Source: Eubacteriales bacterium
GTDB lineage: Bacteria > Bacillota > Clostridia > Oscillospirales > CAG-272
Direction of reading: 5' to 3'
DNA: 64,000 nucleotides
NCBI GenBank assembly: GCA_045633625.1
Contig: JAZQYP010000016.1
Span: 6,059 to 70,058, forward strand
Translations under genes and position numbers: made by a program
The notes under the pieces: model-generated
The model's database searches: none
Seen by the model: only the letters and a program-made list of their open reading frames with translations
Told to the model about the DNA's origin: nothing
Part shown: piece by piece, positions 31,303-55,825 of the stretch
Numbering within the stretch: the first letter of the stretch is position 1
How the letters are laid out: each line of letters starts with the position of its first letter

Positions 31303-31362
31303 CAATATAGAAATTTGGATTTATCGGGTAGTAAGGCTTAAGAGACAGTAATTATATTAAAG

Positions 31363-31469: not shown

Positions 31470-34400
31470 TTAGTTATTTCTTCTCTTTCTTACAAACACT
31501 GTGCAAGTGCCAAGCATTGTGCAAAGAACAAGTCCAACGACCTCGGCACTACCGCCGCATCCTTTTTCCTTCTCGGTCTCGGAAGGCTCTGTCTCGCTTA
31601 CAGAGCCGCTATCCCCCTCGTCCGTCTCTGCGGGCACCGTATCGGTCTCTGTTTCGTTTTCAGTCTCGGTCTCTGTCTCTGTCTCTGTTTCGCTCTCTGT
31701 ATCTTCTATTACGGGTATTGCCTCTGTAGAGGTTGCGCCACACTCCTCGCAGGTGTATGTCTTTACACCCTCGGTGGTCGTTGTAGGCTCAAGCGTTACA
31801 ACTCCCGCGTCAAGCTTATGCGCACTCTCCTCCTTCTCACCGCACTCGCACTCTCTTACGTGCTCAAGTGCATCGTGCTCTGTCCAGTCGCCATATTCGT
31901 GCTCTTCAAGCTCATCTATAGGCTCGGTCTTGGTCTCAGCACACTTTGTGCAGATGTAGGTCTTAACGCCCTCGGTTGTATGCGTTGCCTCGGTCGTTAC
32001 CTCACCGTCATTCCACTCGTGCTCACAAGGTGCGGGAGCGGCACCACCGCCACCTACGGCACCACCGCCGCCTGCAGCACCACCGCCGCCTGCGTTACCA
32101 CCACCTGCGTTACCGCCGCCTGTGGTTTCACCAAGCTTAAGCTCGAATTCACCGGTACCCATATCCCAGTAGCTTCCCTTGGATATAGCCTCCCATTTCT
32201 CCTCGCTACCGCCAAAGCTTACAGTCTCAAGCTCGGACGCGCCGTAGAAGACCGCTTGAGCTATTTCAGTAATGCTTAAAGGAAGCTTGATCTGGGAGAG
32301 CGACTCGCAATACGCAAACGCGAGATCGTCGATGCTCTCGACACCCTCAGGAATATCTATTTGGGTGATCTCACTGCCTGCAAAGGCAAGTGCTCCGATA
32401 TTCTTTACACTGCTTGGTATCACACTACCGGATATGCACTTAACAAGGGTATTCGTGTCCTTCTCTATCAGACAGTTATTTGTCACAACGTAGCTTGCGT
32501 TCTCAGCATCTACCGTCATCGACTCAAGTGCGCCGCACGCCACGAAGGCGGTCGCATCAATATCAGTAACGCTTGCGGGGATATTCACCTCGGCAATAGA
32601 ACTTCTTGCAAAGGACATATAGCCGATAGCCGTGACTCCCTCGGGAAGGATGCTGTTCTTGCATCCGATCACTACCTCGCCGTCCTTTATCACGCAGTTA
32701 TCTGCGCTACTGTATACCGTATTTCCGGCTGCAACCGTTATTGTCTGAAGATCGCAGTCAAGGAAGGGGTTAGTTCCCATAAATGTTACGCTTGCGGGAA
32801 TAGTTATTTCGGTAAGTGCACTGCCCTGGAACGCAAGGCTGTCAATAGTCTCAAGTCCCTCGGGGAGCTCTACCGTCTCGATCTTCGCTCCGCAAAATGC
32901 GTTCTTACCAATGCTCTTTACTGTATCTGCAAGGATTACTCTCTTTATGGGGTAATTGCTCCAGAATGCGTAATCACCAACGCTTGTTACACCGTCTGCA
33001 ATCACTACCGAGCCGATATCCCCGCGGTATGCGTACCAAGGAGCGTCGTTCTCATATGTGAAGTTGGGCATATTACCCTCGCCTATAACATAGAGGGTAT
33101 TTTCAGTCTTATCAAATATCCACACAAGGCTCTCGCCGACACTTCCGTTTGCCTCAAGCTCATCAGCGCGCTGAACGTGTCCGCACTCACAGCTTCTCGA
33201 AGCAACGCCTTCACTTACCGTCCACTCACCAAAAACATGTTCGCAGGGTGCGGAGGGTCTTGCAGGAAGCTCGGGAAGTGTACCGTCATCCGCCTCGGGA
33301 GTGTAAAACTCAAGCACGTGAGGATAGCCGTATACGGGGAATCCCTGTGTCGCATGAGTGCCTGCGAGCGCGGCATTCTCAAATCCCCACGTCACAATAA
33401 CGGTGCCTTCGTTAGCAACGTGATGTATTCTCTGCGCCATAGACACGAGAAGCTTATCAAGCTCGCTGACACCAAATTTCTCAAGAAGGATACTGCGAGG
33501 AATTGCTATCTCATAGTAGGCAAGATCGGCCTTAGTGCTCGTAGAATACGCGCTCACGTATTCGGGCCAGAGTGTTCTGTCAACTCCCCCCAAAACCTCG
33601 TAAGGCGCATTATAGGGGAGATATATCTGTATGTATGAGGACGTGCTGCTCGTACCTACCTGAAGATACAGCGCATCAATGTGTCCTGTGCGGCGAGGAT
33701 CCTTCTGCTCTACCGCGAAATATACGTTATCATCATCAGCCGTCATATAGAAATATACGTGCTCGGCATCGCTGACTAACGCGGAATCACCATAAATGAA
33801 GAAATTATCGTTCGTCGCGTCATCCTCAAACTTGCACTCGACTGTGATCTCGTATTCACCGTCATCGATCTTTGCGTCAACGAGGGGGGTGTGTGCCTCC
33901 GTGAGAGTTTCGGTCTTCTGTCCGTATTCAGAAAGATCAAAGGCGTCAGAGGTGATGGGAGGAGCTACGCTGTCGGCAAGGACGACCACGTTGGGATATG
34001 CAGCTCCCGCAGGGTGCTTTGCCACACCCGCCTCGGTAAGAGTATCACTCGTGAAACCCCATACCGCATAGGAGCTATCCGAACTGTAGTGGTATCTCGG
34101 AGCCATAGTGACGAGAAGCTTATCAAGAGAATCTACGCCAAACATAGCTTTAAGCTGCTCGCGGCTGATAGACACCTCAAAGGTCATTCCCGTTACTGCT
34201 TGGTTCGCGTCCTTAGAGTAAAGGGACGAAGTATTCACATAGTAGTTAGCCACGTCAGCCTTATTAAGTCCGAGGCTGTTCGCAGGCATTTCTATTCCGC
34301 CTATCTTGACGTAATACTGAACGTATTTCGAAAGGTCGTTGCCTGCGGTGATCTGCAGATAAAGCGCCTCAACGCCTGTTGCGTTGGTGTCATCAAGAAC

Positions 34401-36164
34401 TGTGCCGAAATAAACGTTTGTCGAGTCGGAGGACATATAGTAGACCGCTCTTGTTCCGCTTTCGGCGCCCGAGAAGTCATTTCCTACAAGGAAGAAGTTA
34501 TCGTCAGTAGCATCGTTTGCGAATACTGCCTCATAAGACCACGCATACTCCCCTGCCGTTATGCTTCCGTCAACTGCAGGCATTGTTGCATTTCCGGGAA
34601 GGGTTACCGTCTGCTGACCGAGCGAAGCGTAGCTGTAAGGATCATTTACGTCAACCAAGGTCTCGGCAAGCTCGACCACGTTGGGATATGCACCCGAAAT
34701 ATGAGTGGGAACTCCTTGGGCCTTAAGAGTATCGCTTTGGAATCCCCAGACCGCATAGGAGGAACCTGAATTATAATGGTATCTCGGAGCCATAGTGACG
34801 AGAAGCTTATCAACCGAATCAACCCCAAACATTGTCTTGAGCTGCTCACGGCTGATACAGACCTCGAAATACATTCCCTTCATTACCGATCCGTCGTACT
34901 TGGTAGAAGACTTTGTGCTGACAATATAATCAGCAACCTTTGTCTTGTCAAGTCCGAGCGTATTGTCGGGCATTTCTATTCCCAAGGCAGTGTTATGTCT
35001 CTTTACGTAATACTGAACGTATTTCGAAAGGTCGTTACCCGCAGTTATCTGAAGATAGAGTGCCTCAACTCCCGTGTCGGAGGTATCGTCAAGCTCTGCC
35101 GCAAAGTATACGTTTTCCGAGTCGGAGGACATATAGTAGACTGCTCTTGTTCCGCTTTCGGCGCCCGAGAGATCCTTTCCTACAAGGAAGAAGTTATCGT
35201 CAGTAGCATCGTTTGCAAATACTGCCTCATAAGACCACGCATACTCGTTGGTATTTATTATTCCGTCAACAGCAGGCATTGTTGCATTTCCGGGAAGAGT
35301 TACCGTCTGCTGACCGTACTCGGCGTAGTCATAGGGATCATTCGTATTGGTGCTCGCTCCTGCGAAATTTACGACGTTGGGATATGCATACTGTGCATTC
35401 GGTACGGTAACCGGGATCGGAAGACCTGCGTTTACAACGTCATAGTTGTAAAAGCCCCACGTTGCAACCGCATTGCCGTTCGTGCCCGAATTGTATCTAT
35501 AGGACATTGTGACGAGAAGCTGATCGGTAGAATCGACCTCAAGCATTGACTTAAGCTGAGCGTGGCTGATCTGGATCTCTGTATGCTTTCCTATAAACTC
35601 ATTGTTACTGCCAGACTTTACACCCGTCATCTTTTCGACGTGGTAATCCTTGTTGCTATCCGTTCCAAGAGACGACAGTGTGTTGGGGTCAAGTCTCTCG
35701 ACACCATTACCCGGCTTCAAATAGTATATCACTCTCTTTGAAAGGTCGTTGGGATTTGCTATGGTCAGATAAAACAGCTCGGCATAATCCCCCGTATTAT
35801 GAGTATCCTCTATTGCCGCCGCAAAGTACACACTGCTTGAATCGGCTGACATATAATACGTCACCGCCGTTGCGTATTCCGCGTCCACGGTATCGTCACC
35901 CGTGATATATAAGCCGTTTTCTGACACGGGGTTTGTAAGATCGATCTTCTTCGACCACGCGTACTCATCTGTGTTTATCGTTCCGTCTGCCGTGGGCATC
36001 GTTTGCTTTTCGGGAACGGTTACCTCTATTTGTCCGTATGAGGAAAGCTCGTTTGGCTTCGGCGCATCGGCAGCAACCGTTCCAAGAGGAAGCAATCCAA
36101 TAAGCATCGCGATACAGAGCAGTATCGAAAATATCTTTATCATCTTTGTCTTTATCTTTTTCAT
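31470..36164 (-). CDS. Large secreted surface protein with CBM9/DOMON-like modules, BspA-type leucine-rich repeats, Cys/His modules, an acidic linker and a C-terminal membrane tail
   Basis: This is a 1564-aa ORF with signal peptide MKKIKTKMIKIFSILLCIAMLIGLLPLGTVAADA. It has at least 4 modules containing DG-I-x-x-x-EYAWS and YYMS(A/S)DS..VYFA. The LRR_5-like repeats read IADGVTSVGDYAF, VKSIGKNAF and LETIDSLAF. A Gly run (GGGNAGGGNAGGGGAAGGGG) and a TE repeat follow. The tail is GCGGSAEVVGLVLCTMLGTCTVFVRKRRNN. Confidence 0.85.
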   Translation of the reverse strand: MKKIKTKMIKIFSILLCIAMLIGLLPLGTVAADAPKPNELSSYGQIEVTVPEKQTMPTADGTINTDEYAWSKKIDLTNPVSENGLYITGDDTVDAEYATAVTYYMSADSSSVYFAAAIEDTHNTGDYAELFYLTIANPNDLSKRVIYYLKPGNGVERLDPNTLSSLGTDSNKDYHVEKMTGVKSGSNNEFIGKHTEIQISHAQLKSMLEVDSTDQLLVTMSYRYNSGTNGNAVATWGFYNYDVVNAGLPIPVTVPNAQYAYPNVVNFAGASTNTNDPYDYAEYGQQTVTLPGNATMPAVDGIINTNEYAWSYEAVFANDATDDNFFLVGKDLSGAESGTRAVYYMSSDSENVYFAAELDDTSDTGVEALYLQITAGNDLSKYVQYYVKRHNTALGIEMPDNTLGLDKTKVADYIVSTKSSTKYDGSVMKGMYFEVCISREQLKTMFGVDSVDKLLVTMAPRYHYNSGSSYAVWGFQSDTLKAQGVPTHISGAYPNVVELAETLVDVNDPYSYASLGQQTVTLPGNATMPAVDGSITAGEYAWSYEAVFANDATDDNFFLVGNDFSGAESGTRAVYYMSSDSTNVYFGTVLDDTNATGVEALYLQITAGNDLSKYVQYYVKIGGIEMPANSLGLNKADVANYYVNTSSLYSKDANQAVTGMTFEVSISREQLKAMFGVDSLDKLLVTMAPRYHYSSDSSYAVWGFTSDTLTEAGVAKHPAGAAYPNVVVLADSVAPPITSDAFDLSEYGQKTETLTEAHTPLVDAKIDDGEYEITVECKFEDDATNDNFFIYGDSALVSDAEHVYFYMTADDDNVYFAVEQKDPRRTGHIDALYLQVGTSSTSSYIQIYLPYNAPYEVLGGVDRTLWPEYVSAYSTSTKADLAYYEIAIPRSILLEKFGVSELDKLLVSMAQRIHHVANEGTVIVTWGFENAALAGTHATQGFPVYGYPHVLEFYTPEADDGTLPELPARPSAPCEHVFGEWTVSEGVASRSCECGHVQRADELEANGSVGESLVWIFDKTENTLYVIGEGNMPNFTYENDAPWYAYRGDIGSVVIADGVTSVGDYAFWSNYPIKRVILADTVKSIGKNAFCGAKIETVELPEGLETIDSLAFQGSALTEITIPASVTFMGTNPFLDCDLQTITVAAGNTVYSSADNCVIKDGEVVIGCKNSILPEGVTAIGYMSFARSSIAEVNIPASVTDIDATAFVACGALESMTVDAENASYVVTNNCLIEKDTNTLVKCISGSVIPSSVKNIGALAFAGSEITQIDIPEGVESIDDLAFAYCESLSQIKLPLSITEIAQAVFYGASELETVSFGGSEEKWEAISKGSYWDMGTGEFELKLGETTGGGNAGGGNAGGGGAAGGGGAVGGGGAAPAPCEHEWNDGEVTTEATHTTEGVKTYICTKCAETKTEPIDELEEHEYGDWTEHDALEHVRECECGEKEESAHKLDAGVVTLEPTTTTEGVKTYTCEECGATSTEAIPVIEDTESETETETETETENETETDTVPAETDEGDSGSVSETEPSETEKEKGCGGSAEVVGLVLCTMLGTCTVFVRKRRNN
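34050..35450 (-). repeat. Tandem duplication of a 696-bp (232-codon) module inside 31470..36164
   Basis: For example, ggaggacatatagtagac.gctcttgttccgctttcggcgcccgaga occurs at 34428 and again at 35124, an offset of 696 nt. The units are roughly 85-90% identical by eye. Confidence 0.8.
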
Positions 36165-38886: not shown

Positions 38887-39864
38887 TTATTTTTCTTTTC
38901 TACGTACACCTAAAATTGTAGCGCTCGCAAGTGCTAAAGCCGCACATATCACCGATGCCGTACAAGACACGGTAGCACCGCAGCCGCCTTCGCTTGCGGG
39001 CTCGGTGAGGGGCTCTGTCTCGCTCTCGCTTACGCTCTCCTCGGTAGCGACCGTTTCGGTCTGCTCCTCGGGCTCACTTTCGGGCTCGGTCTCGGGCAAC
39101 ACTATCTCGGGAAGTGTCGGAAGCTCCTCGCCCTCGTTATCGGGCTTATCATAAAGCTCAAGCACGTTGGGGTAGCCGTATACGGGAAAGCCCTGCGCCA
39201 AATGCGTGGGTGCAAGCTCGTCGCTCTTAAAGCCCCACACAACGGAAACGTTGCCGATATCCTCGCTCGCGGTTATTCTTTGCGCTACGGTTACCAAAAG
39301 CTTATCAAGCTCGTCAACGCCAAACTTTTTCTCGATTATGCTTCTCGGAATAGCCAGCTCGTAATAGGTAAGATCGCCCGTATAGGATGCGGCGTATCCT
39401 GCATAATAATCCTTCCAAAGATCTCTGTTGCTCTCGGTGAGTATCTCGGGCCATCTGTGATAGGGCAGATATATCTGAATGTAGCCGTCCGTTCTTGCCC
39501 CTGCGCTTATCTGCAGATACATAGCATCGTGAAAGCTAACTCTTAAGGGGTCCTTCTGCTCTACTGCGAAATAGATGTTGTCATCATCGGCAGTGACGTA
39601 TACGATAACGTACTCTGCCTCGGTTTTTTCATAGCTGCCGTTTATAAAGAAATTATCATCGCTCTCATCCTCGTCAAGCACAAGCTTAAATGATAGCTCA
39701 TACTCCTCTTCTTCTATGTGACCGTCGATAAACGGTGTCATAGGATAGGTGAGCTTGACCGTTTTCTGTCCGTAATCGCCAAGATCATATGCTCCCGCAG
39801 ATACCGATACCGCGGCGATACACAGAAAAACGGCACAAAGGAAAAGTGTTATTATTTTCTTCAT
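38887..39864 (-). CDS. Secreted single-module CBM9/DOMON-like protein with acidic linker and C-terminal GCG-TM-basic tail
   Basis: This is a 325-aa ORF with signal peptide MKKIITLFLCAVFLCIAAVSVSA. The module is paralogous to the fourth module of 31470..36164 (shared QGFPVYGYP, DELDKLLV, DDDNIYFAVEQKDP). The tail is GGCGATVSCTASVICAALALASATILGVRRKEK. Confidence 0.8.
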   Translation of the reverse strand: MKKIITLFLCAVFLCIAAVSVSAGAYDLGDYGQKTVKLTYPMTPFIDGHIEEEEYELSFKLVLDEDESDDNFFINGSYEKTEAEYVIVYVTADDDNIYFAVEQKDPLRVSFHDAMYLQISAGARTDGYIQIYLPYHRWPEILTESNRDLWKDYYAGYAASYTGDLTYYELAIPRSIIEKKFGVDELDKLLVTVAQRITASEDIGNVSVVWGFKSDELAPTHLAQGFPVYGYPNVLELYDKPDNEGEELPTLPEIVLPETEPESEPEEQTETVATEESVSESETEPLTEPASEGGCGATVSCTASVICAALALASATILGVRRKEK

Positions 39865-40996: not shown

Positions 40997-41220
40997 ACAA
41001 ATTGGGATTTATGGGGTATTGTGTAAGGGGATAAACGAGCGATTTCCGCAAACACTGTAGGGGCGCGCACTGCGCGTCCGCTCGTGCTTCTTTGGTATTC
41101 GTTGCGGACGGCCACATATTGCTTCGCAAAGGCTACGAACTTCGTTCGTGTGGCAGCCCCTACAATCAAAAATAATGTCTTACTCTCTACAAACACATCG
41201 ATAAATCAAAATTTGAAATC
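40997..41220 (+). repeat. Structured intergenic repeat, copy 1 (MITE/REP-like, 224 bp, expanded 3' sub-hairpin)
   Basis: It aligns by eye with 45047-45235 and 55575-55763. Shared blocks are AAATTGGGATTT, GGGATAAACGA.CGATTTC..CAAACACTGTAGGGGCG, GCGGACG, CCCCTACAAT and AAATCAAAATTTGAAA. It sits between the DeoR-family terminator and the pflA stop. Confidence 0.85.
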
Positions 41221-41223
41221 GGG

Positions 41224-41916
41224 TTATTTTATTTTCTCAATATCCTCGTCACGTGTCTCGTCGATGTGGGCGAGCGGGAAGTCTATGCCGAGGTTTTCGT
41301 ATTTGGGTAGGCAGAGCTTGCGGAATTTAAGCAGCTCGACCTTTTTTACACACGAATGAGCATCTCTGACGGCATAAAGGCGCTCAATGCTCTCTCGCGT
41401 GTCGTTTATTCCCTTCACTATTACCTGACGAAGCCACGTGTCGATTTTTCTCCTCTGCAATTCGTCAAGAAATGCGTCAACGCTTGCCTTTTTGCACCTT
41501 GTGTATCTTTCGTAATCTGCGTCGTTCGTCATCTTGTAGTCAAGCAGACAAAGGTCTGTGACGTCAAGCAGCTTTTCGACCGAGGCATTCCAAATACAGC
41601 CCGATGTGTCAAGTGCCGTGTGTATCCCCGCTTCCCCGCAAAGTGTGAAAAGCTCACGCACAAAGTCGGCTTGCATAAGGGGCTCGCCGCCCGAAACGGT
41701 GACACCGCCGTCTTTGCCGAAATACTCGCGGTAGCGGAGGATTTTATCAAAAATCTCGCGTGGCTCGTACTCATCACCGCCACTTACGTCCCACGTGTCG
41801 GGATTATGACAGTAGGCGCATCTGAGGGGGCAACCTTGCATAAATACCACAAAACGAACGCCGGGACCGTCAACGGTCCCAAGCGTTTGTATTGAATTTA
41901 TCCTTCCCTTCATCAA
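41224..41916 (-). CDS. pflA: Pyruvate formate-lyase activating enzyme (radical SAM)
   Basis: The radical-SAM cluster motif is [15 protein letters not shown]. The ORF is 230 aa and overlaps the pflB stop. Confidence 0.95.
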
Positions 41917-44144
41917 AGCACCTCGTGGAAGGTACGGCTGATGACCTCTTTTTGCTGTTCCTTCGAGAGCTTATGGAAGTTTACGGCATATCCCGAAACA
42001 CGGATGGTGAGGTTCGGGTACTTTGTGGGGTCCTCATATGCCTCGATAAGCTTTTCTTTGCTCAGCACGTTTACGTTTATGTGATGCGCATGCTTCTTGA
42101 AGTATCCGTCAAGTATATTCACAAGATTCACAACCTGTGTGTCCTCGTCAGCACCAAGTGCCGAGGGAACTATCGAAAAGGTATTCGAAATTCCGTCACG
42201 GCAGGCGTCATAAGGCATCTTTGCCACCGAATTGAGAGAGGCAAGCGCACCGCATCTCTCACGGTTGTGCATGGGATTAGCACCGGGGGCGAAGGGCTCG
42301 TGAGCGCCACGTCCGTCGGGTGTCGCACCCGTCTTTTTACCGTATACCACGTTCGACGTGATGGTAAGCGCCGAGAGGGTATGTATCGCATTCTTGTAAG
42401 TAGGAGTCTTGCGAAGCTCGGCTATTACGTCCTCAAGTATCTTCTTGCCTATATTATCAACTCTGTCGTCATCGTTTCCGTACGTGGGGAAATCTCCCGT
42501 AGTCTCAAAATCAACAATATAGCCGTTATCGTCACGAATGGGTCTGACGCTTGCATACTTCACCGCGCTCATAGAGTCGGTGATGACCGAAAGTCCCGCC
42601 ACACCAAACGCCATAAGATGCTCGACGTCGGTATCGTGAAGAGCCATTTGTATCTTCTCGTACGCATACTTATCGTGCATATAGTGGATGACGTTCATGG
42701 TGTTAACGTAAAGACGGCAGAGCCACTCAAGATAGATATGGAATCTTGCCGAAACTGCCTCATAGTCAAGCTTGTCAGCTCCGTACGGCTCTATCTGCGG
42801 ACCTATGTGCACGCCCGAAACGGTATCATATCCACCGTTGAGAGCGAGCAAAAAGAGCTTCGGCAGATTACAGCGCGCGCCGAAGAACTGCATCTGCTTG
42901 CCTATCTTCATAGCCGACACACAGCAGGCAATTCCGTAATCGTCGCCGTAATTTACACGCATAAGGTCATCGTTCTCGTACTGTATCGAATCGGTGTCAA
43001 TAGAGACCTTTGCGCAGAATTTCTTAAAGCCCTCAGGAAGATGCTCCGACCAGAGAATCGTGAGATTCGGCTCGGGAGCGGGTCCGAGGTTATAGAGCGT
43101 GTTGAGAATTCTGAAGGACGATTTTGTAACGAGCGTCTTGCCCGACACGCCCATACCGCCAACGCTCTCGGTTATCCACATGGGGTCTCCGCCGAAGAGC
43201 TCGTTATATTCGGGTGTGCGAAGGTGACGCGCCATACGGAGCTTCATAACGAAGTCGTCGATAAGCTCCTGCGCGCCCGACTCGTCGAGTCTGCCAGCCG
43301 CAATATCACGCTCAATGTAAATATCAAAGAAAGAAGCAACTCTACCGAGCGACATAGCCGCACCGTTCTGCTCCTTGATTGCCGCAAGGTAACCGAAATA
43401 CGTCCACTGGATAGCCTCACGCGCATTTCTTGCGGGCTTTGAGATGTCGTATCCGTAGATCTCAGCCATCTCCTTGGTCTTCTTAAGGAAGGCTATCTGC
43501 TGATAAAGCTCCTCAAGGAGTCTTATATTATCGGCGCTCATAAGATTCTCGCCCGTCTTTTTCTTGTCCTCTTCCTTCTTCTCGATAAGAAAATCTATTC
43601 CGTAGAGGGCAACGCGGCGGTAGTCACCGATTATTCTTCCGCGACCGTATGCGTCGGGAAGTCCTGTCATAACTCCGATATGACGAGCCTTTTTCATCTC
43701 GTCGGTATAAACTCTGAAAACTCCGTCGTTATGCGTAGTGCGATACTTGAACTCGTTCTCGATCTCCTCGGAGAGTGCATATCCGTATGCTCCGCACGCC
43801 GCGCGCGCCATACGGATGCCGCCAAAGGGGTGTATACCGCGGCGAAGGGGTGCATCGGTCTGAAGACCCACGATAAGCTCGTTTTCTTTGTCAAGATAGC
43901 CCGCCGCATAGTTTGTAAGAGAGGAAGCTGTGACGGTGTCAATATCAAGCAGACCGCCATTCTCTCTCTCCTTGGCAAAAAGCTCCTCAAGCTTTGCCAT
44001 AAGCGCGCTTGTGCGCTCGGTGGGGCCTGCAAGGAAGTCCGCTTCTCCCTCGTATGCTGTGTAGTTATCCTGAATGAACTGTCTTACGTTCACCTCGTTC
44101 TGCCACACGTCCCCAAGAAAACCATTCCACATTTCAAATTTCAT
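41913..44144 (-). CDS. pflB: Formate C-acetyltransferase (pyruvate formate-lyase)
   Basis: The glycyl-radical motif RVSGYAVNF lies near the C-terminus and the active-site region contains GIACCVS. The length is about 743 aa. I prefer the ATG at 44144 (MKFEMWNGF), which follows GGAGG. Confidence 0.97.
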
Positions 44145-44277
44145 AGAATTATCCTCCATTTTCCAGTCCGCCCAGACGGTCGACGTGTGACTTATTTACT
44201 ACACGGTGTTAATTCACCTGTCCGTCAGTAGTTTATAATTTATTATACTATATTCCTACAAAAAAGTCAATCGGGGA

Positions 44278-45046: not shown

Positions 45047-45235
45047 GTAAATTGGGATTTGGCGGGTTATTGTGTAGGAGGATAAACGAACGATTTCTAC
45101 AAACACTGTAGGGGCGGCCATTGGCCGTCCGTTCGGAATTTTTCGTCGTTTATTGCGGACGCGCAGTGCGCGCCCCTACAATCATAAATGATGTTTTGCT
45201 CTCTATAAACAGACCGACAAATCAAAATTTGAAAG
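45047..45235 (+). repeat. Structured intergenic repeat, copy 2 (189 bp, sub-hairpins swapped)
   Basis: It has the same flanks and orientation as copies 1 and 3. The core reads GTAGGGGCG-GCCATTGGCC-GTCCG...GCGGACG-CGCAGTGCGCG-CCCCTAC. Confidence 0.85.
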
Positions 45236-46491: not shown

Positions 46492-48447
46492 ATGCTTAAA
46501 ATAGCAAAAATAACGTCCTCGCCCATTGTCGATTTTGCGGCGGAGGAATTAAAGAAATATCTTCGTATGATGATGCCCCGCGCGGGTGAGATAAAGATAG
46601 AATATGCGCCCGATGCGACCGATGGATTTCGTCTTGGTCTTATGTCCGATTTCTCACTTGACACAATCGAGGCAGACGATCTTAAGCTTGACGATATCAT
46701 TCATATTGACACCGACGATAAGGGCGGAATTATTGCAGGCTCGAACGCGCGAAGCGTTCTTCTTGCGGTATATAAGTACCTGACCATAAACGGCTGCCGT
46801 TGGCTCTTCCCCGGTATTGACGGCGAGTACATCCCCGTAAAGGACGTAGATCCCACCAATTATCACAAGATGGCAGACAACCGTTACCGCGGTTGGTGCA
46901 ACGAGGGCGCGGAAAGCCAGACCTGTATGATGGAGACTATAGACTTTGCTCCGAAGGTTGGTATGAACGTCTATATGCTTGAGTTCTTCTGCCCGTTTGA
47001 TTACTATGATTATTACTACAACCACCGATTCAATCAGGCAAACCGCGAGCCCGAAAGAGTCACGCGCGAGACTGTCACACAGTGGAAGCGTCTTTGCGAA
47101 GTTGAGATGGCAAAAAGAGGTCTGCAATTCCACGATATAGGTCACGCGTGGGCATCCCTGCCCTTTGGACTTGACCCCGACAAATCCTATGCCGAGGGCG
47201 AGACCGACGAGGCGCTTGAAAATGCCCTTCCCTATATGGCGCTTGTAAACGGCAAGCGCGAGCTTGTTAGCGGCACGCCTATGTACACCAATTTCTGCAT
47301 GTCAAATCCCGAGGCGCGCGCCAAGGTGGTAGATAAGGTTGCCGAATACTGTGAGATGAACGGACACGTGGATTACCTTCACGTGTGGCTGGGCGACTCC
47401 CTCAACCACTCCTGCGAGTGCGAGGACTGTGCTAAAAAAACTCACTCCGATTGGTACGTCACTCTCTTAAATGAAATAGATGCGGAGCTTACAAAGAGAC
47501 AGCTAAGCAACCGTCTCGTTTTTGGGGCGTGCTATGACTCCTTATTCCCGCCCGAGACCGAAACGCTAAACAACCCCTCTCGCTTCTCGATATTGCTCGC
47601 GCCCATATACCGCTCCTACACCGAGTCGGTGTCGCCTAAGACTCCCCCGCTTGAGCTTAAAAGGTTCGTAAGAAACAAGAACGTCTCGCCCTCAAACCCC
47701 GCAGAGCCCGTGGCATACGCTGAGCTTTGGAGAGAAAAAAGCGGCGCGAACGTCCTTCTCTACGAATATCATTTCTGGGTAAATCAGGTCTACGAGGTAA
47801 CGGGAATCCGCTTTGCCGAGATAATTCACAATGACATCAAGGGCTACCGCGCGCACGGCTTTGGTGGCTCTATCGAGGACGGCTCGCAGAGAAGCTTCTT
47901 CCCTAACGGCTTCCCGATGTACACCTATGCGCAGACTCTCTTTGACACGTCTCTTGATTTTGGTGCCATCAAGGAGGACTATTTCAGCCACGCTTACGGC
48001 GAGGACTATGGCGAGGTCATAGCCTTCTTTGAGAAGATAGCCGAGTGTGTTGACCACAAGTTCCTTGCAGGCGAGAGGAGCGCAAATGAGAAGGTGGGAC
48101 AGTACTACAATCCCGCAATGGCTCCCCTTCTCCGCCGCGTACCCGAGGTGGTAGAGGAATTCAGACCCTTCCTTGAGGCGCACAAGACTATGCCCAAGCG
48201 AGTGCAGACGGTGGCAATGAGACTGCTCATAAAATATCTTGAATATATCACGGGCATCGCCCACTTTATGACCCTGCGCGCGCTTGGTGCATCGGCAGAG
48301 GCAAAGCAGGCGGCAAACGAATTTATCGACAGCTTCGGGCGCCACGAGATAGAGATAGAAAGATATTTCGATATGTGCAACTTCGCAAAGTCGCTCCTGT
48401 GGAGAATAATGAAGAAGGACGAGGACCCCGTAAACCTTGGAATATAA
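46492..48447 (+). CDS. DUF4838-like protein (glycoside-hydrolase-like), paralog A
   Basis: This is a 651-aa ORF. The N-terminal block is VDFAAEELKKYLRMM. It also has NFCMSNPEA and the Cys block HSCECEDCAKK, which fit my recollection of DUF4838 blocks. No signal peptide is present. Confidence 0.65.
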   Translation: MLKIAKITSSPIVDFAAEELKKYLRMMMPRAGEIKIEYAPDATDGFRLGLMSDFSLDTIEADDLKLDDIIHIDTDDKGGIIAGSNARSVLLAVYKYLTINGCRWLFPGIDGEYIPVKDVDPTNYHKMADNRYRGWCNEGAESQTCMMETIDFAPKVGMNVYMLEFFCPFDYYDYYYNHRFNQANREPERVTRETVTQWKRLCEVEMAKRGLQFHDIGHAWASLPFGLDPDKSYAEGETDEALENALPYMALVNGKRELVSGTPMYTNFCMSNPEARAKVVDKVAEYCEMNGHVDYLHVWLGDSLNHSCECEDCAKKTHSDWYVTLLNEIDAELTKRQLSNRLVFGACYDSLFPPETETLNNPSRFSILLAPIYRSYTESVSPKTPPLELKRFVRNKNVSPSNPAEPVAYAELWREKSGANVLLYEYHFWVNQVYEVTGIRFAEIIHNDIKGYRAHGFGGSIEDGSQRSFFPNGFPMYTYAQTLFDTSLDFGAIKEDYFSHAYGEDYGEVIAFFEKIAECVDHKFLAGERSANEKVGQYYNPAMAPLLRRVPEVVEEFRPFLEAHKTMPKRVQTVAMRLLIKYLEYITGIAHFMTLRALGASAEAKQAANEFIDSFGRHEIEIERYFDMCNFAKSLLWRIMKKDEDPVNLGI

Positions 48448-48539
48448 GCTTGTTTTGTCCACCTTTTTTGTCAAAAAATGGGTTTACACTTCACGTGCAG
48501 TATGATATAATAGAAAAAAACGTACTAAAGGAGTAAAGT

Positions 48540-50489
48540 ATGTATAAGATTTATAAAATAACCTCTCACCCAACGGTTGATTTCGCGGCAGAGGAGCTCA
48601 AAAAATATCTTCGTATGATGATGACCGAGTGCGGAGAAATTGAGATTTCTTACGCACCCGATGCCACTGACGGATTCCGCCTTGGTCTTATGTCCGACTT
48701 CTCACTTGACACAAGCGAGGCAAAGGATCTTTCTCTTGACGATATAATCCATATCGACACCGATACCGAGGGTGGTATAATTGCAGGAAGCAACGTTCGA
48801 AGCATTCTTCTTGCCGTTTACAAATACCTCACACTCAACGGCTGTCACTGGCTCTTCCCCGGAATTGACGGAGAGCTTATTCCCGCAAAGGACATAGAGC
48901 CCACAAAATTCCACAAGATGGCAGACAACCGCTACCGTGGTTGGTGCAACGAGGGCGCGGAGTTCCAGCACTCTATGCTTGAGGCGATAGATTATGCCCC
49001 CAAGATAGGTCTTAACATCTTTATGCTTGAGTTCTTCAATCCGCAGATCTACTATAGCTGGTACTATAATCACCCTCACAACTCTAACCGCGAGGCAGAG
49101 CCCGTAAGCTCGACCACCACCCTTCAGTGGAAGCGTCAGTGCGAGGCGGAGATAGCAAAGAGAAGCCTTCAGCTCCACGACATCGGTCACGGTTGGACAA
49201 CGCGCCCCTTCGGCGGACGCGACGAGGACGTTTTCAATCTCGGCAAAGCTGAGATCCCCGAGGAGAACAAGAAATACCTCGCTCTTCTCAAGGGCAAGAG
49301 AGACCTCTATATTGGACGCCCCAATCACACCAACTTCTGCTTCTCAAACGAAGAAGGAAGAAGGATCGTCGTTAATTTCGCCGCTGACTACGCAGAAAAA
49401 TTCAGACACGTCGACTACCTGCACTACACCCTTGCCGATAGCTTTAACAACCACTGTGAGTGCGAGGAGTGCAAGAAAAAAACTCCGTCCGACTGGTACG
49501 TAATTATGCTCAACGAGCTTGACGAGGAGCTTAAGCAGAGAGGACTTGATACAAGAGTTGTTTATGCCGCGTACGTTAACACCACGTGGCCGCCCGAGGT
49601 CGAGAGAATAAACAACCCCGACAGATTTACCATTCTTCTTGGCGCTATCACCCGTGATTACACAAAGACAGTATCGAGAACTCTTCCCGACATAGAGCTT
49701 ACAAAGCACGTTCATAATGCCATCACGCTCCCCAAAACTCTTGACGAGTACGTTCTTTACACCAAGGAGTGGCAGAACAGATGCAAGACCGCCGCGCTTA
49801 CCTATGAGTACCACTTCTACGTAAATCAGTATTTCGATCCCGGTATGTTCAGCTATTCGAAGATACTTTACGATGACGTAATAGGCTACAACAAGCACGG
49901 ATTTGTCGGTATGATAGAGGATGGCACACAGCGCTGCTTCTTCCCGAACGGACTCAATCTCTTCGTTTACGCATCGACCCTCTTTGATATGAGTCGTGAC
50001 TTCGACGCGCTCGTTGACGAATATTTCTCGGCGGCATACGGCGAGGACTATGAGAAGGTAAAGGAGTATTTCACACGCCTTGGCAATATATTCGAGCATG
50101 CATACATCGCAGGAAATAAATATGCAGACCGAGGCAACGGAAGATACTATAGCCCCGAGCACGCAGAAAAGATGCGCGGAATTTATGCACTCAACGAGGA
50201 GTTCCGCCCCTTCTTTGAGTCACACAAGAATATGCCCCTGCGCGCGCAGACGGTGGCATTCAAGCTCCTTCGCAAGTACGCGGAGCTTTGGGAGAAGATG
50301 GCAAGACCTCTTATCCTCAAGGCATACGGCGTAGACGACGAGGCAAAGGAGGCATACCTTGCCGTTCTTGATGATTTTGGAAAATACGAGACCGAGCTCG
50401 AATTGTGGTACGATCAGCACATGTTCGGCATGGCATTCGACCGCAGATTTACAATGAAGAGCGATATTATGAATATCGGCGCACAGTAA
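48540..50489 (+). CDS. DUF4838-like protein, paralog B
   Basis: This 649-aa ORF is collinear with paralog A and shares MSDFSLDT, NRYRGWCNEGAE, NFCFSNEEG and NHCECEECKKK. It has its own promoter-like TTTACA-17-TATAAT in the 92-nt spacer. Confidence 0.65.
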   Translation: MYKIYKITSHPTVDFAAEELKKYLRMMMTECGEIEISYAPDATDGFRLGLMSDFSLDTSEAKDLSLDDIIHIDTDTEGGIIAGSNVRSILLAVYKYLTLNGCHWLFPGIDGELIPAKDIEPTKFHKMADNRYRGWCNEGAEFQHSMLEAIDYAPKIGLNIFMLEFFNPQIYYSWYYNHPHNSNREAEPVSSTTTLQWKRQCEAEIAKRSLQLHDIGHGWTTRPFGGRDEDVFNLGKAEIPEENKKYLALLKGKRDLYIGRPNHTNFCFSNEEGRRIVVNFAADYAEKFRHVDYLHYTLADSFNNHCECEECKKKTPSDWYVIMLNELDEELKQRGLDTRVVYAAYVNTTWPPEVERINNPDRFTILLGAITRDYTKTVSRTLPDIELTKHVHNAITLPKTLDEYVLYTKEWQNRCKTAALTYEYHFYVNQYFDPGMFSYSKILYDDVIGYNKHGFVGMIEDGTQRCFFPNGLNLFVYASTLFDMSRDFDALVDEYFSAAYGEDYEKVKEYFTRLGNIFEHAYIAGNKYADRGNGRYYSPEHAEKMRGIYALNEEFRPFFESHKNMPLRAQTVAFKLLRKYAELWEKMARPLILKAYGVDDEAKEAYLAVLDDFGKYETELELWYDQHMFGMAFDRRFTMKSDIMNIGAQ

Positions 50490-54239: not shown

Positions 54240-55528
54240 TGAAATCAAGCAAAGCAAAAAAACGTATGATCGCCCTTATCGTTGCGGCAGGTCTCTTTGT
54301 CGCAGGCATCGCACTTTCCGCTATAGGAGTTGTATTTATGGGTAATAATTCTCACTTCATTTCAAAAAACAATTACAAGTCGGTCACGGCTGACGTTACG
54401 GAGGACTTTAAGTCTATAAGCGTACTCGCCACCACCTGTGACGTCATTTTTGAGGCTTCCCCCGACAACAACACTTTGATATCGGCACACGTTCCCGAAA
54501 AAAGCGACGTCGAAAGCTTTGTCGAGGACGGCACACTTCATATTCGCGTAAAGGACAACCGCAAATGGTATGATTTTATACGTATATCAATAGGCACCGA
54601 GTCGCCAAGTGTTGTAGTGTATTTGCCGAAGGGCGAGTATGAGACGCTTTACGCTCACGTCACCACGGGAGACTTCAGCATAGGTGAGGAGCATTCCTTC
54701 TCTTCCCTCTCCTTTGAGGCAAGCACGGGAGACGCCGTGATATTATCACCCGTAGGAGAGTCACTTTACGCCAAGGTGACCACGGGAGACGTAAGAGTGG
54801 GCAATACCTCACCCGCACTTATGGAGCTCAGAGCCACAACGGGCGATATAAAGATAGAAAACGTGCAAAATTCAGGCAAGATAACGGCAAAGACGGGATC
54901 GGGAAAGGTTTCTTTCTCTACGGTACACGCAAACGAGATAGATATTGAGACGACCACGGGAGATATTGGCCTTGAGGACGTTATCGCAGCTTCCTCGGCT
55001 CATATCAAGGCAACGTCGGGCGACGTAGAATTTGAGGCATTTGACTCGGCAGAAATTTATATTAAGGTAACCACGGGCGACGTCGAAGGTGAGCTGCTTT
55101 CGAGCAAGAAGTTTATCACCGACACGACCACGGGCGACGTAAGAGTTCCCTATAGCACCGAGGGCGGTGTGTGTGATATAAAGACCACCACGGGCGATAT
55201 TGAAATTTACGTTGTCGACCGCTCATCACGCATTTACGTTTGGGAAAAGGAAGGCGCGGGCGGCGCATTTACCATAAGTCTTTTTGAGGACGGCACCTTC
55301 CAATATTACGAGGGAATGTTCTCAAGCTATATTGGAATGGGCACGTGGGAAAAGGACGGAGAGGTTATCACTCTCACCGAGGGCGACATCGGCTACGGCT
55401 TTGTATTTAAGTTCAGAATGTCACACGGCGACCTGCTGTTTATCAAAGAGGAATCGGACAAATTCCTTTACACCGACGTCGCCGACGGGGACAGATTCCT
55501 CGGCAGAATGATGAAGGAAGATAAATAA
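54239..55528 (+). CDS. DUF4097-like beta-strand-repeat protein with extra C-terminal domain
   Basis: An N-terminal TM helix is followed by repeated T(T/S)GD(I/V) strands: TTGDFSI, STGDAVI, TTGDVRV, TTGDIKI, TTGDIGL, TSGDVEF, TTGDVEG, TTGDVRV and TTGDIEI. About 100 additional C-terminal residues follow. Confidence 0.85.
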   Translation: MKSSKAKKRMIALIVAAGLFVAGIALSAIGVVFMGNNSHFISKNNYKSVTADVTEDFKSISVLATTCDVIFEASPDNNTLISAHVPEKSDVESFVEDGTLHIRVKDNRKWYDFIRISIGTESPSVVVYLPKGEYETLYAHVTTGDFSIGEEHSFSSLSFEASTGDAVILSPVGESLYAKVTTGDVRVGNTSPALMELRATTGDIKIENVQNSGKITAKTGSGKVSFSTVHANEIDIETTTGDIGLEDVIAASSAHIKATSGDVEFEAFDSAEIYIKVTTGDVEGELLSSKKFITDTTTGDVRVPYSTEGGVCDIKTTTGDIEIYVVDRSSRIYVWEKEGAGGAFTISLFEDGTFQYYEGMFSSYIGMGTWEKDGEVITLTEGDIGYGFVFKFRMSHGDLLFIKEESDKFLYTDVADGDRFLGRMMKEDK

Positions 55529-55530
55529 TA

Positions 55531-55558
55531 AAAGGGCGGTCATACCGCCCTTTATTTG
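55531..55558 (+). terminator. Rho-independent terminator
   Basis: The stem aaagggcggt / accgcccttt is followed by atttg. Confidence 0.65.
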
Positions 55559-55574
55559 TCGCAATTTTAAGAGA

Positions 55575-55763
55575 TAAATTGGGATTTGTGGGGGTGTTGT
55601 GTAGAGGGATAAACGAACGATTTCTACAAACACTGTAGGGGCGCGCACTGCGCGTCCGCTCGTGCTTCTTCGGCGTTCGTTGCGGACGGCCAATGGCCGC
55701 CCCTACGATTAAAAATAATGTTCTACTCTCTACATAACATCCCAATAAATCAAAATTTGAAAT
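55575..55763 (+). repeat. Structured intergenic repeat, copy 3 (189 bp)
   Basis: It is closest to copy 1, about 90% identical over shared positions by eye. It lies between two convergent terminators. Confidence 0.85.
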
Positions 55764-55784
55764 AGCGGGTGCCTTGTGTCAAGA

Positions 55785-55825
55785 CAAAAAGCGCTTACGG
55801 CAATGCCGTAAGCGCTTGATTTTCT
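55785..55825. terminator. Terminator of aspS (usable in both directions)
   Basis: The 13-bp stem is agcgcttacggca / tgccgtaagcgct. It is flanked by caaaaa on the left and tgatttt on the right. Confidence 0.75.

Follow-up and report, generated by a model that had tools for sequence, protein, structure and literature searches.

The window analysed here is a 64,000-nucleotide stretch of a contig from an Eubacteriales bacterium (assembly GCA_045633625.1, contig JAZQYP010000016.1). It carries three copies of an intergenic repeat and one isolated fragment of it. With the boundaries of the copies set by the family-wide consensus, these features are:

40999..41217, + strand: copy 1, 219 nt, with the terminator of a DeoR-family gene on one side and the 3' end of a PFL-activase gene on the other
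45049..45233, + strand: copy 2, 185 nt, 20 nt downstream of the stop of a PGA_cap gene and ~107 nt upstream of the start of an HTH gene, both genes being on the - strand
55576..55761, + strand: copy 3, 186 nt, flanked by the terminators of the convergent DUF4097 and AspRS genes
31311..31331, + strand: solo left-end remnant of the outer frame described below, AAATTTGGATTTATCGGGTAG, downstream of a terminator and without a right end

A preliminary description of this DNA had reported three copies in the same orientation with no transposase nearby. Both points were borne out: all copies lie on the + strand, the earlier boundaries were off by no more than 2 nt, and Pfam scans of 50 window ORFs returned zero transposases; no RAYT gene was seen in the 64-kb window either. 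Pairwise identity is 89% between copies 1 and 3, 80% between copies 1 and 2, and 81% between copies 2 and 3. Chance is ruled out: 3 copies of the 18-nt block GGATAAACGANCGATTTC were counted where 0.24 would be expected, and 2 of the combination GTAGGGGC-N40-70-GCCCCTAC where the expectation is 0.00. The terminal inverted repeat that had been counted for copy 3 (26 of 33 positions) was reproduced exactly, and the match is 20/33 in copies 1 and 2. The copies had also been said to adjoin gene 3' ends and terminators, which is correct for copies 1 and 3, both lying between the hairpins of converging terminators. Copy 2, however, also stands upstream of a gene start, at the distance given above, and is therefore not purely 3'-end-associated. 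The window copies are intergenic repeat DNA rather than a gene. The spurious 69-aa ORF in copy 1 yielded no candidate when compared with 5.8 billion proteins, so tracing copies through mis-annotated peptides failed.

Each copy has two layers. The inner one consists of two inverted REP-like units, each made of GTAG and a GGGCG-palindrome-CGTCC, and is by its sequence a REPIN-type doublet. Its parts are:

55635..55659, + strand: REP-like unit A of copy 3, GTAG + GGGCGCGCA-C-TGCGCGTCC + GC; also at 41057-41081 (copy 1) and 45155-45179 (copy 2, as the right-hand unit, inverted)
55682..55706, - strand: REP-like unit B of copy 3, GTAGGGGCGGCCATTGGCCGTCCGC as read on the - strand; also at 45108-45132 (copy 2, left-hand, + strand) and 41104-41163 (copy 1, insertion-bearing)
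41115..41150, + strand: 36-nt insertion, in copy 1 only, exactly within the loop of unit B

Unit A has the sequence GTAGGGGCGCGCACTGCGCGTCCGC, and the two units are described together by the pattern GTAGGGGCG[CGCACTGCG/GCCATTGGC]CGTCCG. Each is 25 nt long and comprises the GTAG, a 9-bp stem (with one G-T pair) and a 1-3-nt loop. By definition a REP is an imperfect palindrome of 20-40 nt that bears GTAG as a tag on one of its ends (PMC3733652), and units A and B have this form. Their GTAG tags face outward on either side of a T-rich spacer of ~22 nt, as in a REPIN or HH dimer.

The core had previously been drawn as a four-way junction of helices P1 to P4. Copies 1 and 3 have this as their minimum-free-energy fold, but copy 2 is predicted to form one extended hairpin. 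Unit A spans the 5' arm of P1, P2 and the 5' arm of P3, and unit B spans the 3' arm of P3, P4 and the 3' arm of P1. The two units are predicted either to pair together (through P1 and P3) or to fold each on its own, and the junction is simply the folded appearance of two short palindromes in an inverted doublet. Nor do the blocks keep the same order in all copies, as had been stated: in copy 2 the mini-hairpins have changed places and are complemented, with GGCCAtTGGCC preceding GCGCAgTGCGC. The branched P4 of copy 1 is made by the 36-nt segment, a clean loop insertion and not a compensatory change. Pairing seemed to be preserved while sequence changed because of this insertion together with the swap of the two palindromic units. 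The predicted fold is very stable (-82.7 kcal/mol, z = -8.8). For the window subfamily, predicted folding favours the + strand over the - strand by 8-16 kcal/mol, and G-U pairs are commoner on the + strand in 3/3 window copies; this folding advantage could reflect a strand-specific role as single-stranded DNA or RNA. Four copies of the window REP type are known, the three described here and one from a metagenome (L001), which is the 1 match of a 22-nt core pattern in metagenome contigs; the same pattern has 0 matches in 185,579 species genomes and 0 in viral contigs. A high genomic copy number, as earlier proposed, is only indirectly supported, being judged from relatives.

The outer layer is a frame, an imperfect inverted repeat of ~25 nt with the family consensus (GAT)AAATTG-NNN-TTTATCGGGGAGTT at its left end and AACTCNCCGAYAAATCAAAATTTGAA at its right end. 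On either side of a mismatched centre of 4 nt it has paired boxes, AAATT/AATTT and TTTATCG/CGAYAAA. In the window its ends are:

55576..55591, + strand: left end in copy 3, AAATTGGGATTTGTGG; counterparts at 40999-41014 (copy 1) and 45049-45064 (copy 2)
55743..55761, + strand: right end in copy 3, CAATAAATCAAAATTTGAA; counterparts at 41199-41217 (copy 1) and 45215-45233 (copy 2)

The right-end pattern was found in at least 116 stretches of species-representative genomes, ~105 of them real among the matches listed. The hosts among these listed matches are nearly all Eubacteriales/Clostridia/Oscillospiraceae MAGs, uncultured and from animal guts, and they cover dozens of species. The frame is common to more than 100 elements whose interiors are mutually unrelated, being non-homologous between subfamilies, and nearly always palindromic. 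Both ends are present in 41 to 43 elements, which measure 67-489 nt and contain no ORF, and folding energies are very low on both strands in 41/41 elements folded; minimal frames of 67 nt and 94 nt occur (L107, L077). The loci of relatives hold 43 further copies in 545 kb, a density of ~1 per 13 kb. True contig ends cut ~60 matches (~60% of those listed) less than 400 nt upstream. Frame elements break metagenome assemblies and seed spurious small ORFs, and the element in one relative (L002) contains a called 38-aa 'gene' that is such an ORF.

Inside the frames GTAGGG is enriched 11.5-fold, and 61/84 GTAGGG+hairpin units (73%) lie within them. Many frame elements have no GTAG unit at all in their interior, so RAYT-REP recognition does not account for the frame, the best-conserved part. 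Conservation of the flanks is limited to GAT at positions -3 to -1, in 63-79% of copies, and no direct repeat indicative of a target-site duplication flanks any of ~40 full copies. The variable triplet of the frame is identical in 20/42 within-genome pairs against 11% overall (p=5e-5). Neighbouring copies are co-oriented in 30 pairs and opposite in 22 (p=0.33), counts skewed by detection at contig ends. In viral contigs the right-end pattern was found in one real copy, at a contig edge, and in two stretches of HsdS coding sequence; copy 3 had no BLAST match in plasmids or phages. A text search of the literature found no mention of the right-end sequence, and a literature search on MITEs and Clostridia returned nothing relevant. 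The frame elements form a large and apparently undescribed repeat superfamily of uncultured gut Clostridia. CodY, Spo0A, IHF and cre sites were also considered for the identity of the frame ends; by eye none of these consensus sequences fits.

Comparison with relatives shows how variable these sites are. At the AspRS site the element of copy 3 is missing in three close relatives, and the window differs from relatives at this site over a 590-nt block that includes a 111-aa C-terminal extension and a terminator. Relatives at the DeoR site have a downstream gene that differs from that of the window, and no clean filled/empty pair with a precise junction was obtained from the AspRS- and DeoR-site relatives. 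Flank, junction and frame end are alike between copy 3 and L002, and again between copy 1 and another relative (L132), with unrelated interiors in both cases. Two further loci differ by a 79-nt insertion in a hairpin (L119 vs L058). That such elements are mobile in these genomes is shown by a clean insertion polymorphism for a nested small palindrome. Exact matches to the proteins of window genes were sought and none was on record, the 100%-identical AspRS cluster P0001 included.

Across 786 kb of fetched loci no transposase gene recurs beside the elements, and no long element or autonomous IS with frame ends was found in these loci. When nearby ORFs were clustered, nothing recurred but AraC regulators, ABC transporters, oxidoreductases and housekeeping families of that sort. 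A tblastn of all loci with IS200 and IS608 TnpA queries found no match, but it was too insensitive, because RAYT-like genes turned up later around stand-alone REPs. By reading the sequence around these REPs we located genes for RAYT-like HUH tyrosine transposases in related MAGs (L017 7280-7804 and L069 3014-3520). The best NCBIfam match of the two proteins is NF047646, REP-associated tyrosine transposase (E 1e-15 and 3e-17), at 57-63 bits against a curated cut-off of 80, and they score 22.2 and 16.8 bits with Pfam Y1_Tnp against a cut-off of 23. Their only PDB match is the E. coli TnpArep structure 4ER8 (E 5e-5); the alignment covers the HUH motif and the tyrosine region, and the proteins carry the motifs MPNHIH and (F/S)YEHVIR/YDHVIR. 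Within each ORF, and at homologous positions, two GTAGGG REPs in inverted orientation bracket the HUH-coding segment. The L017 REP is by eye identical to that of a frame element in the same MAG (L031). Neither gene is flanked by frames.

The window repeats are most likely non-coding, hairpin-forming mobile DNA. We give an even chance to the explanation that each copy is a non-autonomous, non-coding, two-layer DNA palindrome on which a RAYT-type HUH enzyme acts in trans. An inner REPIN-type doublet would be nested in a long imperfect stem ending in the ~25-nt inverted-repeat frame, and the element would fold as single-stranded DNA in replication. The hairpins with their GTAG tags would be recognised by a RAYT-type HUH tyrosine transposase whose gene lies elsewhere in the genome, and this enzyme would cut and rejoin the element in trans, leaving copies with neither a target duplication nor an adjacent transposase. 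The frames would be long-lived resident hairpins with turnover of their interiors. We infer that a RAYT would move the window element and that the frame would have a part in this. Among the three identities that the preliminary description had offered, a REP-like target of a HUH transposase is the best supported, by the inverted GTAG-tagged palindromes and by the RAYT-like genes in relatives with the same kind of REP.

Another of those identities, a MITE, agrees with the small size, lack of coding capacity, high copy number and ~25-nt terminal inverted repeat found family-wide, but not with the lack of target-site duplications, and no parent IS was found in the fetched loci. In its classical form the ~25-nt ends would be bound by the DDE transposase of an unseen parent IS, the move would be double-stranded and the REP-like core would be a passenger. 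Frame ends that stay the most conserved part over dozens of species and more than 100 copies, with interiors free to vary, would suit this, as would the ORF-free lengths of 67-489 nt and the genome-specific frame triplet, expected for ends that co-evolve with the genome's own enzyme. Set against these are the ~40 full copies without a target-site duplication, the fetched loci without a recurrent adjacent transposase or a long element with frame ends, and interiors that are almost always palindromic, a thing that DDE transposition does not need; we consider a classical MITE unlikely. Possible, although still on the improbable side, is that the frame is resident, a folded recombination site or landing pad into which palindromic cassettes, REPINs among them, are inserted or swapped; gene conversion between copies, or else a site-specific enzyme, could do the swapping. 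Two of the three window sites have a relative with the same frame end and an unrelated interior, minimal frames exist, 73% of the GTAGGG hairpin units sit inside frames, and the insertions (36 nt in copy 1, 79 nt in L119) fall in hairpins; GTAG dimers within long palindromes are on record in Anabaena variabilis (PMC3733652). However, a whole 186-nt unit, comprising frame, core and ~45 nt of specific stem per side, was copied to three window sites, no recombinase was found in the material analysed, no site bearing just the frame was recovered as the orthologue of a filled one, and independent insertion at a hot spot may have occurred. A wider version, doubtful in our view, would combine landing-pad frames and swapped palindromic cassettes (REPINs, Gut-1-type arrays and others) with RAYTs carrying their own recognition hairpins within the coding sequence, around the HUH catalytic segment. 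If true, gut Clostridia would have a nested, self-referential single-strand DNA repeat system, and one or more of the 'orphan' RNA motifs of metagenomes, Gut-1 in particular, would be mobile DNA modules.

REP/BIME and ERIC elements have been proposed to act as barriers, stabilisers or protein-binding sites. The window element might likewise be an extragenic palindrome kept, whatever its origin, as a transcription barrier, an mRNA 3'-end stabiliser or a protein-binding site, since the copies are strictly intergenic, often directly after intrinsic terminators or between convergent genes, and the frame sequence is conserved across species. We think this improbable: presence and interior type differ between close relatives at the same site, and the window copies lie beyond existing terminators. 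Very improbable in our estimation is the third identity proposed, that of a structured non-coding RNA in which the long closing stem and four-way junction would be functional, whether as a UTR element or as a small RNA gene. The stable fold of the window copies, the greater number of G-U pairs on their + strand and the Gut-1 (RF01706) match of another type of frame interior speak for an RNA, but an Rfam gathering-score scan of the window found no match and an E-value scan of copy 3 had a spurious U11 as its best hit (21.9 vs 39 bits). Moreover, strand preference in folding is 24 vs 16 (p=0.23) over 41 family members, orientation to neighbouring genes is mixed, and promoter-like sites occur at shuffle frequency, with copies 1 and 3 between converging terminators. 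Finally, subfamily interiors are non-homologous and the best fold of copy 2 is not a four-way junction.

Returning to the RAYT explanation, Bertels and Rainey are said to have described REPINs in 2011 as inverted doublets of GTAG-tagged REPs with RAYT partners. The window element resembles them in its short, GC-rich, GTAG-tagged imperfect palindromes, joined head to head across a short spacer as a heterodimer able to form one hairpin or separate ones. It is also extragenic, mostly downstream of genes and without an adjacent transposase, with RAYT-like HUH/Tyr genes and matching REPs in relatives. It differs in that a further stem of ~60 nt encloses the doublet and ends in a cross-species frame that GTAG-free elements share, in that the REP pair of the relatives lies inside the RAYT-like ORF around the HUH segment instead of flanking the gene, and in its hosts, which are uncultured Clostridia. 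To our knowledge, REP/REPIN-RAYT systems have been studied almost wholly in Proteobacteria. If the explanation is true, their host range extends to abundant uncultured gut Clostridia, and, with REP pairs both in a conserved frame and in a RAYT-like gene, enzyme-hairpin co-evolution becomes directly testable. Firmicutes are not among the listed hosts of GTAG REPs (PMC3733652), and Group 1 RAYTs are noted only as 'also found in the Clostridia' (PMC5581495). Composite designs are known: in A. variabilis, dimers of GTAG-15 lie inserted in long palindromic sequences, with target palindromes lacking REPs not found, and in Pseudomonas degenerate GTAG-1 units are joined to unrelated stem-loops (PMC3733652). 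The A. variabilis case shares the two-layer design of a GTAG REP dimer inside a longer conserved palindrome, but its sequence and phylum are others, and the outer palindrome described here has many interiors and minimal forms of 67-94 nt. The window element belongs to a REP/REPIN/MITE-like kind already known, as a new form of it.

Bacterial MITEs and mosaic intergenic repeats include Correia/CREE, ERIC, pneumococcal BOX and BIMEs; sequence similarity to these was not found in the libraries searched. Like these, the frame elements are small, non-coding, intergenic and hairpin-forming, with conserved ends, a modular or variable middle and a high copy number. Correia elements duplicate TA, unlike the frame elements, which have no target-site duplication, and the diversity of frame interiors far exceeds the modular boxB variation of BOX. 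PATEs, derived from IS200/IS605, lack terminal inverted repeats; their subterminal hairpins are separate for the two ends, and a fixed target of 4-5 nt lies 5' of the left end. The absence of target duplication, the hairpins, the proposed HUH single-strand mechanism and the partly conserved GAT 5' of the left end (just 63-79%) are points of likeness, but the ends of frame elements are mutually inverted and pair with each other. Integron attC sites also resemble the frame as folded single-strand hairpins with two paired boxes, an unpaired centre and a terminal structure of variable length. The frames, however, end in AAATTG... and ...TTTGAA, without RYYYAAC/GTTRRRY core sites, and are dispersed singletons without cassette arrays or, in the window, an integrase. 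The Gut-1 match is an inverted pair that makes up the interior of an element with the same right frame end (L025 1276-1472); its hairpin-UGAAAU repeats are another interior module, one that does not match the window copies. With Gut-1 inside one frame, frame elements may account for some of the 'RNA motifs' of gut metagenomes.

The preliminary description had reported three copies of a structured repeat, and all three are present on the + strand of the window, align over their whole length in MAFFT, and were recovered independently by a repeat finder as families D9, D13 and D16. With boundaries taken from the whole-family consensus, they are placed as follows:

40999-41217, + strand, copy 1
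45049-45233, + strand, copy 2
55576-55761, + strand, copy 3

Copies 1 and 3 are 89% identical, copies 1 and 2 80% and copies 2 and 3 81%, and the blocks common to the three are well above chance expectation. The earlier count of 26/33 for the terminal inverted repeat of copy 3 was reproduced exactly; copies 1 and 2 reach 20/33 each. The predicted fold of copy 3 (-82.7 kcal/mol, z = -8.8) is a long stem with a four-way junction on top. This junction, proposed at first for the whole family, is predicted for copies 1 and 3, with a branched fourth arm in copy 1, but copy 2 is predicted to form one extended hairpin. Nor do the blocks keep the same order throughout, as had been stated, since the mini-hairpins of copy 2 are swapped and complemented with respect to those of copies 1 and 3 (REP units compared between 45108-45179 of copy 2 and 55635-55706 of copy 3), and the T-rich loop between them is unchanged in orientation. 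By eye, 15/22 spacer positions are identical between copies 2 and 3 in direct orientation. The arrangement of copy 2 would need two nested inversions or unit-wise replacement. The longer fourth helix (P4) ascribed to copy 1 does exist, but it results from 36 nt cleanly inserted (41115-41150) in the loop of that hairpin, and these 36 nt do not recur in the 786 kb of DNA from relatives.

Whole-element relatives are rare. The 22-nt pattern invariant in all copies has no match in 185,579 species genomes and none in viral contigs, and its one match in metagenomes (locus L001) is a fourth copy, truncated where the contig stops. Among AspRS homologues, the nearest share 96-98% identity and derive from assemblies of animal guts; in one related locus (L002, AspRS 97% identical) the same site downstream of AspRS has the same ends around an unrelated 224-nt interior. 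A scan of the species genomes with the right-end pattern CRAYAAATCAAAATTTGAAA gave at least 116 stretches. Among the matches listed, ~105 are genuine elements, nearly all from MAGs of uncultured Eubacteriales, Clostridia or Oscillospiraceae from chicken, pig, ruminant and human guts, and ~11 arose by chance or lie in coding sequence, for example within an HsdS peptide ('DKSKFE'). Elements with both ends (n = 41-43) are 67-489 nt long, and their frame has the consensus (GAT)AAATTG-N3-4-TTTATCGGGGAGTT ... AACTCNCCGAYAAATCAAAATTTGAA, an imperfect inverted repeat of ~25 nt, mismatched at its centre. The interiors of different subfamilies show no similarity to one another, and every element has a very strong predicted fold on either strand. 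We saw no target-site duplication, and the sole conserved flank is GAT at -3 to -1 (63-79% of copies). About 60 right-end matches are truncated by a true contig end that lies upstream at <400 nt, and a further 43 slightly variant copies occur in 545 kb of loci, ~1 per 13 kb; frame elements are repeats of high copy number at which assemblies break. In the left end, the variable triplet is genome-specific regardless of the interior (20/42 identical within genomes vs 11% overall, permutation p = 5e-5). Tandem elements were seen in L014 (~2669, - strand) and L058 (~5970, - strand), where the second begins 8 nt past the right end of the first, and the window has a solo left-end remnant (AAATTTGGATTTATCGGGTAG; 31311-31331, +) right after a terminator, without a right end. 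In L002, a 38-aa 'gene' of the source annotation (6002-6118, -) lies wholly within a frame element and exemplifies a spurious ORF.

Inside the frame, each half of the junction in the window copies is a GTAG tag with a short GC-rich hairpin behind it: GTAG-GGGCGCGCA-C-TGCGCGTCC-GC in unit A and, on the opposite strand, GTAG-GGGCGGCCA-T-TGGCCGTCC-GC in unit B. By published definitions (PMC3733652), this architecture is a head-to-head heterodimer of GTAG-tagged REPs, that is, a REPIN. The same unit design with other palindromes recurs in many members (including L041, L049, L055, L106, L116, L032, L047 and L065); GTAGGG is 11.5-fold enriched within frames, and 61/84 GTAGGG+hairpin units lie within them. 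A comparable two-layer arrangement is that of the GTAG-15 dimers of Anabaena variabilis, 'inserted within long palindromic sequences' (PMC3733652). The same paper lists GTAG REPs for Proteobacteria, Cyanobacteria, Chloroflexi and the PVC group, with Firmicutes not among them, and Group 1 RAYTs are only noted as 'also found in the Clostridia' (PMC5581495).

The suggestion that the element is a structured RNA was not supported. The + strand of the window copies has a predicted fold better by 8-16 kcal/mol, and across 41 full elements no consistent strand preference was found (24 vs 16, Wilcoxon p = 0.23). Since, in addition, the elements have no uniform orientation to the genes beside them, the window copies have no Rfam match and the interiors are non-homologous, our results argue for palindromic DNA over a structured RNA family. 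Elsewhere, Rfam Gut-1 (RF01706) matches twice, inverted, in L025 (1276-1346, +, 57.6 bits; 1370-1444, -, 61.5 bits), forming the interior of an element (1276-1472) closed by the right end of the frame. Similar hairpin-TGAAAT arrays occur in L009 (22-70), L023 (1187-1230 and 2839-2894, -) and L026 (7881-7929, -). This inverted pair and the similar arrays suggest that some Gut-1 'RNAs', at the least, belong to the frame DNA repeat system as modules.

RAYT-like genes were found in relatives by reading the DNA around REP units outside frames:

L017, 7280-7804, RAYT-like gene, 174 aa
L069, 3014-3520, RAYT-like gene, 168 aa
L024, ~2176-2400, truncated RAYT-like gene, which breaks off at the first REP and runs on into a frame's right arm
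L106, 5-112, - strand, truncated RAYT-like gene; the contig stops just before the first-REP position of L017/L069

The best NCBIfam match of the L017 and L069 proteins is 'REP-associated tyrosine transposase' (NF047646, E 1e-15 and 3e-17), at 57-63 bits, under the 80-bit cut-off; with Pfam Y1_Tnp they score 22.2 and 16.8 bits (cut-off 23). In the PDB they match only 4ER8, the structure of the E. coli RAYT (E 5e-5), in an alignment that covers MPNHIH (HUH) and FQASFYEHVIRN. Each of the two ORFs contains two inverted GTAGGG REPs, at homologous positions, which bracket the HUH-coding segment and are of different types (VVGTGVLDCP/DGQSGTPVPT vs IVGRGLAP/AAGASPRPT). The L017 REP is that of frame element L031 from the same MAG (27/27 positions, read by eye). 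L017 and L024 are syntenic, and the RAYT-like genes have no flanking frames. In the literature searched, neither the frame nor the placement of REPs within a RAYT ORF is described.

In our reading, the window element is non-autonomous DNA of REPIN type, set within a palindromic frame that is conserved. Folded as single-stranded DNA, it would be moved in trans by a HUH tyrosine transposase of RAYT type whose gene lies elsewhere, leaving no target duplication. The REP-like possibility raised in the preliminary description is partly borne out: tag, hairpin and inverted doublet are all present and the element qualifies to that extent as a REPIN. What the data show is the anatomy, the family and where it occurs, the lack of both a target duplication and a nearby transposase, and RAYT-like genes with matching REPs in relatives; we infer the action of a RAYT on the element and the part played by the frame. 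The RAYT reading is weakest in that the frame, the most conserved part, also encloses interiors without GTAG units, so that it may be recognised otherwise. It may be the end of a DDE-type MITE, recognised by something other than a RAYT, but the lack of a target duplication speaks against this, and the MITE proposed earlier fails on that point. Alternatively, the frame may be a landing pad or recombination site for cassette exchange.

The histories of individual sites bear on the persistence of frames. In L003, L120 and L121 (AspRS 96-98% identical) no element lies downstream of AspRS. Relative to these, window 55196-55785 is a 590-nt block comprising a 111-aa C-terminal extension of a DUF4097 protein, a terminator and copy 3, so the site is not a clean empty one. 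L002 has a GH2 glycosidase gene at the corresponding place; its terminator, spacing and frame ends are those of copy 3, and its interior is different. Likewise, L132 (DeoR 90% identical) shares with copy 1 the terminator, the junction and the left end (AAATTGGGATTTATGG), followed by a different interior. A site therefore keeps its frame and differs in its interior, as would be expected if occupancy were ancestral and interiors turned over, though a strong hot spot for insertion may explain it instead. The MAG closest to the window (JAZOSH01, source of L003) has frames with other interiors (L071, L110) and no window core. Small palindromes do move in these genomes, as a clean 79-nt insertion in L119 (4615-4693) is absent from a near-identical L058 element. 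This insert is a separate palindromic repeat, GTCTCGCTGCGGCTCGGTCAC...GTCGCTTCGCTAC, placed within frame-element hairpins and found also in L058 (2333-2411), L026 (three partial) and L031 (1644-1665, partial); it makes up another small mobile family, inserted into the frame family.

The window itself is ordinary chromosome (PFOR, IleRS, AspRS, EF-P, RNase J, PFL and its activase, a ZTP riboswitch) and, as noted before, without a transposase in Pfam scans of 50 of its ORFs. Copies 1 and 3 lie between converging terminator hairpins. The placement next to gene 3' ends applies to copy 2, 20 nt past one stop codon, but this copy is also ~107 nt upstream of the next start. Promoter-like sites occur no more often than in shuffled sequence. 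The ZMP/ZTP (pfl motif) riboswitch (RF01750; 44163-44242, -; 40.6 bits vs gathering score 39) is directly upstream of the pyruvate formate-lyase gene (41913-44159, -). Low-complexity repeats of GAGACC/GAAACC type (5896-6228, 31620-31709 and 38989-39093) would, by eye, encode Thr/Glu/Ser-rich linkers. Internal repeats of ~690 nt (33429-35591) lie within the gene for a 1564-aa BspA-type LRR protein, and two DUF4838 paralogues stand in tandem at 46492-50489.
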